Shown: piece by piece, positions 25,366 through 27,430 of the stretch
Numbering within the stretch: the stretch's first letter is position 1
Layout: every line of letters starts with the position of its first letter
Assembly (NCBI GenBank): GCA_039810485.1
Contig: JBDHXA010000002.1
Span: 8,597-72,596, forward strand
DNA from: Chlorobiota bacterium
GTDB lineage: Bacteria; Bacteroidota; Ignavibacteria; Kapaibacteriales; UBA961
DNA: 64,000 nt
Direction: 5' to 3'
Notes under the pieces: generated by a model
Seen by the model: the letters and a program-made list of their open reading frames with translations, nothing else
The model's database searches: none
Told to the model about the DNA's origin: nothing
Position numbers and translations under genes: made by a program

Positions 25366-26562
25366 TTATTTATAGACGTAAATATTTCCCAAGATTGGAT
25401 CGCGCGCATGATGGTTGGTTATTTGATTAATAACCTCTTGAGAAAATACTACTCCTGCAGAAAGAAGCTTTAAGCCGGAATTTGCATATAAATCTCGAAA
25501 AAGCGTCATTCCTTGCTGCACATCTTTTAATTCAATTGTTGTTACTTTTGATGATCGCAAAGTGCCATCTTCATTGGCTCGATATTCTTCGTGCAGCAAT
25601 ACAACACGTGGATCGTATAGGTGATTCATGCCATTGAATAATGAATCAGAAGCACCTTTTGCTCCTTTTGGCAAAAATATTGATAACTCTTCATAGTCGA
25701 GAACAACTCGAAGAATGCGAGAGCCAAGAGGCAGTTGCCACGCCTTTTTTCCTTGTGGAAATCCTGATCCGTCAAAATTTTCATACAACGACTCCAACAA
25801 CACTCCTGCTTCTTTAAGCAATCTTGCTTTATTGAGTATTGCTGCCGCAGAGCTTGAAATTTGTTTAAGAGCCGAATGAACAACTTGTCCTTCTTGCATA
25901 ACGGGCTGTAATTGTAAGCTTTCTGGCAAAAGTAAACGTCCTAAATAGCAGAATTTTGAAGCTAAACCGATATTTTGCAAATCACTTTTTCCAAGATCAA
26001 TAAAATGCTTCGCAATCCACAGAGAAATGCTCTCAACGCGTTCAAACATTGTTATCAAAGTTGGAAATCTTGATTGCAATAAATCAGCGGCCAGATTAGC
26101 AATTTCAAGTAATTCTTCATCCTCAGATTCTTTCTGTGTTTTCTGATTTAGTATCTGACGCTGCAATGCCGCGGCACGCAATCCAACTTTCAATCTTGCA
26201 TTTAAATCGTCAATTGTAAAGGGTTTCCCAATAAAATCATCAGCTCCAGCTTTAAATGCCTGAGTGCGAATTTCCGGCGTGGAAGTTGGAGAAGCGGCAA
26301 CAACAATGCAGTAAATTGAAGACGTATGTGAATAGGTTTTTATAGAGCTGCATAGCTCTAAGCCAAATGTCGGCGTAATATTTGTATTTATGAGAACTAA
26401 ATCAATATGAGATTTATCAGCAATTTTCCAAGCATCGTTTCCGGTTTTTGTTTTATAAATGCGAGAATTAGGCGCGATCCGAAGAATGTATTTTTCAAAT
26501 GCATCCAACACTAATTGTTCGCTCTCTACAATCAGTATCTTTAACTCGTCTGTAATTTGCAT
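25366..26562 (-). CDS. Response regulator: N-terminal receiver domain plus a degenerate HD-GYP domain. The metal-ligand HD/HH residues are replaced, so it is probably non-catalytic.
   Basis: REC (ILIVESEQ...DLVLIN...K). The C-terminal domain is collinear with HD-GYP, but the HD position reads FCYLGRLL and HHERWDGSGYP reads LYENFDGSGFP. Start reassigned to the ATG at 26562 (MQITDELKILIVE) because upstream codons overlap motB. Confidence 0.65.
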   Translation of the reverse strand: MQITDELKILIVESEQLVLDAFEKYILRIAPNSRIYKTKTGNDAWKIADKSHIDLVLINTNITPTFGLELCSSIKTYSHTSSIYCIVVAASPTSTPEIRTQAFKAGADDFIGKPFTIDDLNARLKVGLRAAALQRQILNQKTQKESEDEELLEIANLAADLLQSRFPTLITMFERVESISLWIAKHFIDLGKSDLQNIGLASKFCYLGRLLLPESLQLQPVMQEGQVVHSALKQISSSAAAILNKARLLKEAGVLLESLYENFDGSGFPQGKKAWQLPLGSRILRVVLDYEELSIFLPKGAKGASDSLFNGMNHLYDPRVVLLHEEYRANEDGTLRSSKVTTIELKDVQQGMTLFRDLYANSGLKLLSAGVVFSQEVINQITNHHARDPILGNIYVYK

Positions 26563-26578
26563 ACAAATTAAAAAATAA

Positions 26579-27430
26579 TTATAACGGTCGTTGATTTCTA
26601 TATCGGACAAGTATGCTAACGCGACGATTGCTTGTATCGAAAGGATTGGAAGGAACTCGTAACTTGCGATCTGCATAACCGGTAACGCTAACGATTTGTC
26701 CTTCCCAAAGTTTGTCGCTTTGTTCTAAGATTCTGCGCACTGCATTAGCTCGCTCATTCGATAATTCCCAATTAGAATAATTCCGTCCCTTTCCATATGG
26801 TCTGCTGTCAGTATGACCTTCCACTTCTATAAAATTAGGCATTGTGCCTAATTCGAAAGCAAGTTTTTGTATTAAGTCAACTGCATCTTTTGTAGGGCGC
26901 GAGCTTCCCACCTGAAAAAACTCTGTTGAATCAGATTCCAGCATTTCAATACGCAATCCCTCTTCTGTCAATTCAATTTTTAAAGATGAAAGAAGTTTTT
27001 TGATTCCGGGCTTTTCCTCAACTTGCTCTTTTAATATCTCATCAATTTTACTTCGCAATTCCTCCATGTTAGTGCTGTCTTTTGCAAATTCTATTTTTAT
27101 TTTCGCCGAATCAGATACGCTCACTTCTATATCGGATTTTGCTCCCGGATTATTTCCTTCGCCGCGCGGAGGCAAAGGGGTAAATTTCATGTCTATCGGG
27201 ACTCCTTTGCCAGTTGTAAAGCTAAAGACACCCGGTTCTTTAAAGAATTGCGCTATTCCCTTTTTTGTAGCATCGCTCAGACCAAGTATCCACATAACCA
27301 AAAAAAACGCCATCATGGCAGTTACGAAATCAGCATAAGCTACTTTCCATGCTCCTCCATGATGTCCTCCATGACCATGCTTTTTCTTTTTCTTTATAAT
27401 AATCGGCTGTTCTGGATTATGTTCCGACAT
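26579..27430 (-). CDS. motB: Flagellar motor stator protein MotB (OmpA-like peptidoglycan-binding C-terminus). No motA is adjacent.
   Basis: N-terminus [36 protein letters not shown] (MotB plug and TM region with conserved Asp). C-terminal OmpA-like [11 protein letters not shown]. Confidence 0.75.
   Translation of the reverse strand: [283 protein letters not shown]

Follow-up and report, generated by a model that had tools for sequence, protein, structure and literature searches.

A catalytically dead HD-GYP response regulator encoded with motB in Ignavibacteria and Kapabacteria: a candidate regulator of the flagellar stator

In a 64-kb stretch of contig JBDHXA010000002.1 from a Chlorobiota bacterium (the whole of which is called the window here), a motB gene is followed by a gene for a response regulator-like protein (RR) that joins a receiver domain (REC) to a degenerate HD-GYP domain. 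Comparison with related loci supports the motB-RR pair as a real, co-conserved, stator-linked module. RR retains the HD-GYP fold, and the metal centre of that fold is gone. The reading that we favour, though still tentatively, is that RR is a non-catalytic, stator-associated regulator or adaptor, since the operon data and the precedent of inactive REC/HD-GYP proteins working by protein-protein contact both point to it.

Conservation of the motB-RR pair

Open reading frames (ORFs) were called and clustered in 83 related loci; 80 loci from GTDB genomes were fetched, of which 78 were informative. In 61 of these 78, motB lies directly upstream of the RR gene on the same strand, and the co-conservation that an earlier note on this DNA had named as a check is thereby borne out. 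A motA gene (Pfam MotA_N and MotA_ExbB) precedes motB in 57 loci, and a gene for a tetratricopeptide repeat (TPR) lipoprotein of about 550 amino acids precedes motA in 45. The two reading frames of the pair are close, with a median distance of 5 nt, and are separated by at most 30 nt or overlap in 43 of 55 loci. The order TPR-motA-motB-RR was confirmed on independent contigs through gene calls with precomputed Pfam assignments, and the linkage to motB persists in the most divergent members, P0089 and P0100, at 27-30% identity. On a midpoint-rooted neighbour-joining tree the MotB-linked RRs form one clade, to which about 17 unlinked paralogues do not belong, and several genomes hold one linked and one unlinked copy. 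The stator-control module proposed in the earlier note, whose function we infer, is strengthened and generalised by this co-conservation.

The TPR protein (e.g. L088, 6327-7982; also L005-L083 and L088-L092), which the window lacks, has a lipoprotein-like N-terminus and may serve as a stator scaffold in the periplasm, in the manner of MotX or PflB. Some of the unlinked dead HD-GYP paralogues (L063, L075, L080 and L060, around 7000-14800) lie beside a VWA-OmpA peptidoglycan-binding protein and tandem leucine-rich-repeat proteins. Many metagenome-assembled genomes (MAGs) that carry the operon are titled 'uncultured Hyphomicrobiales', 'Chloroflexota' or 'Desulfobulbaceae' (e.g. L007, L009, L016, L079 and L035), and are probably mislabelled or mis-binned.

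Organization of the locus

In the window, motB, the RR gene and a plsC-type gene are all on the minus strand, arranged head to tail. The features are as follows:

25366-26562, minus strand: gene for the RR-like protein, 398 aa plus stop; Pfam Response_reg (E 3e-15) and HD_5 (E 2e-15). The architecture, drawn from family alignments, a profile alignment to PDB structures, an AF2 model and Foldseek, is a pseudo-receiver, a helical linker, a catalytically dead HD-GYP and a 68-aa beta-rich C-terminal domain
26191-26538, minus strand: REC domain, residues 9-124; Response_reg 56.9 bits, with phmmer matches to many REC structures
25603-26091, minus strand: degenerate HD-GYP domain, residues 158-320 (HD_5)
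25369-25572, minus strand: C-terminal domain of RR, residues 331-398; a beta-beta-beta-alpha-beta module, '...GMxLxRD..SGLKLL.AG....DPILGNIYV'
26563-26578, minus strand: motB-RR spacer, 16 nt
26579-27430, minus strand: motB, 283 aa; Pfam MotB_plug (E 1e-18) and OmpA (E 3e-11)
27431-27602, minus strand: motB upstream region, 172 nt between plsC and motB
27603-28316, minus strand: PlsC-type acyltransferase; Pfam Acyltransferase and TIGR00530

The spacer between motB and the RR gene is consistent with co-transcription. The close pairing described in the earlier note stands, with a corrected distance, as the motB stop ends at 26579 and leaves 16 nt rather than 17 bp; likewise plsC is indeed the upstream neighbour, at 172 nt and not across a 170-bp gap. 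The PlsC-type gene is an unrelated neighbour outside the module, and its position beside the pair is not conserved in any relative. The longest ORF for RR, of 436 aa with a start at 26676 that overlaps motB, was rejected; the ATG at 26562 was taken as the start because all homologues align from that Met.

Loss of the catalytic centre

A phmmer search of the whole RR against the PDB returned receiver domains only, and HD-GYP structures were reached only with a profile built from the C-terminal half of the family. For motif placement, a profile from 18 family members was aligned to PmGH (4mcw), PA4781 (4r8z), V-cGAP3 and DvhD. C205-Y206 (25945-25950) align on the HD dyad, and L259-Y260 stand at HH, followed by E-N-F-D-G-S-G-F-P (25756-25788) in place of HH-E-x-x-D-G-x-G-Y-P, with G267-F268-P269 falling on GYP. 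When the ligand set of PmGH (E185, H189, H221, D222, H250, H276, H277 and D305) was compared, the positions of E185, H189 and H250 were found to be Thr, Met and Ile in the window RR; the sole metal ligand retained is D289, the equivalent of D305, so that seven of the eight ligand positions are substituted. The AF2 model of residues 140-398 has a pLDDT of 90.8, and its top PDB matches in Foldseek are all HD-GYP proteins with TM-scores of about 0.5-0.7: DvhD (9rc0/9rbz), which is the best structural match (E 4e-6), PA4781 (4r8z), PmGH (4mcw), V-cGAP3 (5z7c) and Bd1817 (3tm8). The changes read earlier from the letters alone (HD to CY, HH to LY and GYP to GFP, with the overall fold kept) are therefore the same as those seen here, and the alignment to characterised HD-GYPs confirms the loss of ligands. 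Judged from these positions, the domain cannot be a metal-dependent phosphodiesterase of cyclic di-GMP (c-di-GMP); the earlier view that such activity is unlikely holds for the window RR and extends to essentially the whole family.

A protein search gave about 110 full-length homologues, 26-52% identical, whose sources are without exception MAGs of Ignavibacteria, Kapabacteria or the Chlorobi group. A scan with one genome per GTDB species gave 479 relatives, which likewise belong to the Ignavibacteria/Kapabacteria/Chlorobi group. The sources often name the homologues 'RpfG family c-di-GMP phosphodiesterase' or 'HD domain-containing phosphohydrolase'. Column counts show that the HD-equivalent across the family is C, S, A, I or V followed by Y, F, L or Q, with His at the HD position in none of the 83 loci. 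The HH-equivalent is [ILVM][YFW] in almost all, the second His being retained in 6 of 83. Near-invariant across this range of identity are E-N-[FY]-D-G-[ST]-G-x-P, SRIxR, D289, Y316-D317 and the C-terminal DPILGNIYV. Because these motifs stay invariant or almost so at such distances, the family is under selection for a non-catalytic role.

The origin of the family can be approached through more distant relatives. Searching 1.84 billion cluster representatives with a profile of the C-terminal domain gave 1049 matches. Among the 97 full-length proteins in the best 150 of these 1049 matches (representatives of 50%-identity clusters), HD and HH are missing in 93; the other four, whose motifs are intact, are out-group enzymes of greater length (425-455 aa). 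The distant relatives P0116 and P0117 read HDIGK...HHENFDG[ST]G[YF]P. As relatives with intact motifs already have the ENFDG signature and the C-terminal domain, the family descends from active enzymes.

Nucleotide binding

HD-GYP domains that have degenerated may still bind nucleotide tightly, as is seen in DvhD, which binds c-di-GMP with a Kd of about 99 nM (structures of 2026, 9RBZ/9RC0; PMC13090378). One alternative is that RR is a receptor for c-di-GMP (or cGAMP or pGpG), in which the dead HD-GYP domain binds the dinucleotide and signals to the stator as a brake or clutch similar to YcgR or MotI. The high affinity of DvhD, which is also the top structural match of RR, speaks in favour of this, as do the GYP loop and the helix after it, where conservation in the family is highest, and the fact that control of stators by c-di-GMP is widespread.

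However, the residues that hold the nucleotide in known structures are not conserved. PmGH holds c-di-GMP by metal ions, Tyr285 of GYP, the KPG backbone and RxY[K/R] (R314-K317) (10.1101/2021.11.05.467447), and the contacts of DvhD are Y621 (GYP), K582, L577, M646, R650, Y652, R653 and E668 (PMC13090378). RxY[K/R] was found in 0 of 110 family members, and that stretch is the least conserved of the domain. The GYP Tyr, kept in 5 of 119, is otherwise Phe, Ile or Leu, and KPG is [KQE]P[VI] in the family (QPV in the window). At the positions of DvhD Y621, K582, L577, M646, R650, Y652 and R653 the window has F268, H229, Q223, S294, P298, G300 and A301, and residues at the aligned DvhD contact positions vary across the family. 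The metal ligands that would hold the phosphates are absent, the C-terminal domain is not PilZ-like, and no PilZ domain with the RxxxR and DxSxxG motifs was found in RR. On these alignments, the canonical nucleotide site is not conserved in the family, and a dinucleotide receptor, which would have to use a new site, seems unlikely. Of the 'c-di-GMP sensor or adaptor' suggested before, the sensor loses ground with the missing contact residues of PmGH and DvhD, and the adaptor fits better.

The receiver domain

Receiver positions were read from alignments to YycF, KdpE and ArlR. In the window RR, N59 (codon 26386-26388) stands at the phospho-acceptor Asp, E13-S14 replace DD and A89 replaces Thr, with K113 retained. 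An Asp acceptor is present in 53 of the 58 motAB-linked relatives, as it is in the four sister-clade loci L001-L004, which are near-identical copies of one locus; Asn at this position occurs only in the window among the MotB-linked loci sampled. The earlier note was right that the receiver fold is kept and overlooked that the phosphorylation site is lost. Because the acceptor Asp has been replaced by Asn59, control in the lineage of the window must, to judge from these residues, be independent of phosphorylation.

In two related loci (L096/L097, 11309-11998) a 229-aa soluble HisKA-HATPase_c kinase is encoded convergent to the motA-motB-RR operon and is a candidate cognate kinase in that lineage.

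MotB and the flagellar motor

MotB has the features of its family: a cytoplasmic N-terminus rich in Lys, His and Gly, a single transmembrane (TM) helix with the conserved Asp ('YADF'), a plug and an OmpA-like peptidoglycan-binding domain. Its closest PDB matches are MotB of E. coli and Salmonella (9lu9, 2zvy and 5y3z), and its C-terminal domain aligns to MotB-C of these species. Against NCBIfam PRK09041 it scores 228.1 bits, with residues 1-277 covering positions 1-275 of the 287 of the model, below the cutoff of 277; several MotB orthologues carry the PGAP name MotB even though the window protein scores under this cutoff. Among the 120 closest homologues the TM/plug segment, including the proton-binding Asp, shows at least 95% invariance, and it is intact in the window. 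The MotB homologue with a textbook plug and TM region recognised in the earlier note is thus upheld by Pfam, the PDB matches and the invariance of this segment. A functional flagellar stator B subunit of the E. coli type would be the best explanation for this sequence.

Evidence from the relatives points to flagellar motors for such proteins. In PGAP annotation the linked proteins appear as 'flagellar motor stator protein MotA' and 'flagellar motor protein MotB'. In locus L095 (1-7194) the gene order is flgK-flgL-motA1-motB1-fliW-csrA-motA2-motB2-RR, where MotA2 and MotB2 are orthologous to the RR-linked proteins (at 53% and 42% identity) and share their N-terminus, and MotA1 and MotB1 are of another type (21-25%). 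The genomes of Kapabacterium Ch6 (L030; PMC7509429) and Ca. Thermonerobacter MS-B_bin-24 (L045; PMC6338057) were reported to have flagellar and che genes, and Ignavibacterium album has a flagellar cluster of 71 genes (PMC3362086). Most simply, the RR-linked MotAB would be a second, E. coli-like stator set of the flagellar motor, and the tandem sets of L095 suggest a dual-stator motor in Ignavibacteriota.

A non-flagellar energised system of the MotB/OmpA type had been left as an alternative in the earlier note; in this view the regulator and MotB, by itself or paired with a different channel protein, would drive or anchor something else. Three features of the window are in line with it: motA and flagellar genes are absent from the 64 kb, the organism has cargo proteins of the type IX secretion system (T9SS), and MotB falls just under the NCBIfam equivalog cutoff. 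Nevertheless, MotB aligns over its full length to the E. coli-type flagellar protein with an invariant plug, TM segment and Asp, the orthologous pairs come with a MotA of the MotA_N type in 57 loci and lie inside a flagellar cluster in L095, and no ExbB/TolQ-like gene was found in the window. With E. coli-type MotA and MotB proteins, the cluster of L095 and two operon-carrying genomes that are reported as flagellate, we regard this alternative as very improbable. A poor match to ZorB1 (18.8 bits against a cutoff of 400) also stands against it.

A Zorya (ZorAB) or other defence system was considered as well and rejected on the same score, with no ZorA-/MotA-like or other partner genes nearby.

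The missing motA and a putative promoter box

No motA is adjacent to motB, as the earlier note had seen, and none was found in the 64-kb window or in the sister-clade loci. A tblastn search of the window with 57 MotA and 45 TPR proteins from related operons gave no match, and Pfam found no MotA_ExbB, flagellar, chemotaxis or gliding families in any of the 45 large ORFs. A motA hidden in another frame, such as one overlapping upstream of motB, or in an unannotated ORF was rejected, since tblastn was empty and so was Pfam at E<=0.1 on the five ORFs without a family. The strong conservation of MotB implies that a MotA partner exists elsewhere in the genome, where an unlinked motA is presumably located. 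An unlinked motB has precedent, as motA and motB are unlinked in Caulobacter and Sinorhizobium.

The arrangement of motB-RR without motA is restricted to the window and its sister group, and is found there in three differing neighbourhoods, with plsC upstream in the window, a Lactamase_B-rhodanese gene in L001-L004 and L087, and a PEP-utilising enzyme in L086. The 'orphan' motB of the earlier note is better described as a lineage-specific rearrangement of the TPR-motA-motB-RR operon than as a design feature. The 10-mer CGTAGATTTG at 27500-27509 on the minus strand, 77 nt before the motB ATG, matches the Bacteroidetes-type -7 box TAnnTTTG. The same 10-mer was found 70-83 nt upstream of motB throughout the motB-RR-only clade (L001 at about 9040, L003, L086 at about 9035 and L087 at about 1864) despite the different flanks. 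It is a putative promoter box, and because it is kept in three neighbourhoods the pair seems to move as a self-contained transcription unit. Other signals were not detected: no Rfam element, including c-di-GMP riboswitches, reached the gathering threshold over the window or E<=1 over 25200-27800, scans for sigma-70 and terminator consensus sequences gave counts no higher than expected from shuffled sequence, and the region upstream of motB showed no sigma-28 or sigma-54 pattern.

The absence of motA and the TPR gene at the locus could also mean that the pair is a decaying remnant, non-functional in this lineage, of a stator operon that was broken up, with motA lost and the regulator drifting. 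The window RR is indeed the only MotB-linked member sampled that combines an Asn acceptor with ES and Ala, and it is just 49-52% identical to the sister clade. However, neither ORF is disrupted, MotB shares 77-83% identity with its sister-clade counterpart and keeps all residues conserved at 95% or more, RR retains every family-invariant residue, and the unit with its promoter box has been kept in three genomic contexts. There seems to be very little chance that the pair is such a remnant.

Proposed role of RR

We propose that motB and the RR gene form one transcription unit, which would be part of a flagellar stator module typical of Ignavibacteriota and Kapabacteria. The clade of the window would have lost the linkage to motA, with the MotA partner encoded elsewhere in the genome. 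RR would be a pseudo-enzyme of the RpfG type that kept the fold and the GYP loop and lost the metal centre and the nucleotide-holding residues, and it may serve its stator set as a dedicated regulator or adaptor that works through contacts between proteins. It would control stator engagement, torque or recruitment, much like the PilZ brakes and clutches of other phyla. The switch for this control would in most species be phosphorylation of the receiver, and in the genome of the window RR would have to be either constitutive or controlled by its expression or by a binding partner. A physical interaction with the stator and the direction of the effect are presumed in this proposal.

A more specific version is possible, though we find it rather doubtful. 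Throughout Ignavibacteriota and Kapabacteria, RR would be the dedicated, co-translated cytoplasmic partner of a second, E. coli-type flagellar stator (TPR-MotA2-MotB2-RR), acting as a phosphorylation-switched clutch or recruitment factor. It would then represent a new class among proteins that control stators, with a pseudo-enzyme as its scaffold and independent of PilZ and possibly of c-di-GMP; the lineage of the window would be a variant uncoupled both from motA linkage and from phosphorylation.

It is also conceivable that RR has no motor action and is only co-expressed with the stator, binding instead a GGDEF or an EAL/HD-GYP enzyme that it inhibits or activates, in the manner of HnoD or RpfG. 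RpfG contacts GGDEF proteins by way of its GYP region. For REC/degenerate HD-GYP proteins the one role established by experiment is of this kind, as HnoD inhibits the EAL protein HnoB. Moreover, the unlinked paralogues and the Chloroherpetonaceae members indicate that the family can work without a neighbouring stator; C. thalassium, the cultured relative of the latter, is without flagellar genes (PMC3362086). Against this, the coupling of motB and RR is tight, often overlapping and phylogenetically deep, beyond what is usual for mere co-regulation, and no GGDEF or EAL gene was found as a conserved neighbour across about 90 loci. A modulator of c-di-GMP enzymes is therefore a minor possibility, and a stator-associated regulator or adaptor remains the preferred role.

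Several points weigh against that role. The dead motifs also occur in paralogues that are not linked to motB, in about 17 of the 78 loci and in the members labelled Chloroherpetonaceae, and because the motifs are shared the activity of the family would not be intrinsically bound to a stator. Contact with MotA, MotB or FliG is deduced from operon linkage, which could reflect mere co-regulation. The window RR evolves about three times faster than MotB and its receiver is unusually degenerate, making a weakened function in this lineage possible. A search for the unlinked motA of this clade did not find it, the two most widely sampled matches to a MotA2 query being ordinary TPR-motA-motB-RR operons. 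Finally, a non-canonical nucleotide site is possible.

If RR does act on the stator, flagellates of the FCB group would use a type of motor regulator unseen in model organisms, a pseudo-enzyme derived from a c-di-GMP phosphodiesterase; the list of stator regulators would be extended, and a signalling enzyme turned structural regulator would have a concrete case. Several hundred database entries named as hydrolases cannot, by their motifs, be such enzymes, and counts of c-di-GMP turnover enzymes in these phyla are inflated to that extent. The data also speak for a flagellar motor with two stators in Ignavibacteriota, the second of them encoded beside a TPR lipoprotein. These organisms are mostly uncultured, and Ignavibacterium album is a cultured member with a flagellar cluster (PMC3362086).

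Other features of the window

A SucD-like succinyl-CoA ligase alpha subunit (3622-5409, plus strand; CoA_binding and Ligase_CoA) has a basic C-terminal tail of about 270 aa, made of about six tandem repeats of about 34 aa, each with an AT-hook-like motif; this repeat tail accounts for the AT-skew spike of 0.264 at 4001-6000. A stand-alone MetH activation domain (22604-23548, plus strand; 314 aa) contains only Met_synt_B12 (E 8e-126), with no other MetH modules adjacent. Two regulatory genes on the minus strand are not conserved beside the module in relatives: a multi-PAS hybrid histidine kinase of 1415 aa (17936-22183), which ends about 3 kb from the RR gene, and a REC-PglZ response regulator (56692-58251). 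A Porphyromonas-type peptidyl-arginine deiminase and an Ig-repeat protein (46646-48814, minus strand, and 60763-63882, plus strand) carry a Por_Secre_tail; as these are C-terminal sorting domains of the T9SS, the organism has this secretion system as well.

Comparison with known systems

Inactive RpfG-type regulators and stator brakes related to c-di-GMP are already known. In the literature searched we found no description of a dead HD-GYP regulator in a stator operon across a whole phylum, and a 2026 review of brakes and clutches lists only YcgR, FlgZ, MapZ and EpsE. Compared with the RpfG family (COG3437), the window RR has the receiver domain and the HD-GYP fold and lacks the phosphorylatable site.

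Active HD-GYP proteins, such as PmGH (4MCW), PA4781 (4R8Z), V-cGAP3 (5Z7C) and the NosR family (NF053512), share the fold of RR, which differs from them in being without seven of the eight metal ligands and without RxY[K/R]. The NosR model aligns to RR residues 119-392 at 130 bits, against a cutoff of 400. Relatives of the P0116, P0117 and P0449 type have HHENFDG[ST]G[YF]P and the same C-terminal domain as the family of the window, which derives from such enzymes.

The nearest functional precedent is HnoD of Shewanella oneidensis (SO_2541), an inactive REC/HD-GYP protein with HD changed to SE and HH(E) to QLE, which has no phosphodiesterase activity and is thought to act by protein-protein interaction (10.1101/2021.11.05.467447). 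Both proteins consist of a REC followed by the HD-GYP fold with HD and HH(E) substituted. However, the family described here has C[YF] and [ILV]Y-ENFDG substitutions and an extra conserved C-terminal domain of 68 aa, and the window copy, unlike the HnoD family, is also without the phospho-acceptor. Moreover, RR is encoded in a stator operon and not in an H-NOX/HnoK locus, and the EAL enzyme that HnoD targets has no counterpart among the neighbours seen here. DvhD of Desulfovibrio vulgaris has likewise lost HD (SQ) and HH (MN), whereas it keeps the GYP Tyr, RxYR and other c-di-GMP contacts, and is a LapD-like dCache-PAS membrane receptor rather than a response regulator.

With regard to the motor, L095 resembles known dual-stator systems in having two different MotAB sets in one flagellar cluster. 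Such motors are found in Pseudomonas (MotAB/MotCD), Shewanella (PomAB/MotAB) and Bacillus (MotAB/MotPS). We know of no description of a dead HD-GYP regulator in the stator operon of these dual-stator systems, or of the systems in which motA and motB are unlinked. The PilZ brakes and clutches (YcgR of E. coli, MotI/DgrA of B. subtilis and FlgZ of Pseudomonas) have the same role that is proposed for RR, that of a soluble protein tuning the motor via the stators. FlgZ acts on the second stator, MotCD, and is thus specific for one of two stator sets, as proposed for RR. On the other hand, the folds are unrelated (PilZ versus HD-GYP), and the PilZ proteins depend on c-di-GMP, while the input of RR is probably phosphorylation in most species. 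The PilZ brakes are not encoded immediately after motB, which is the position that RR occupies.

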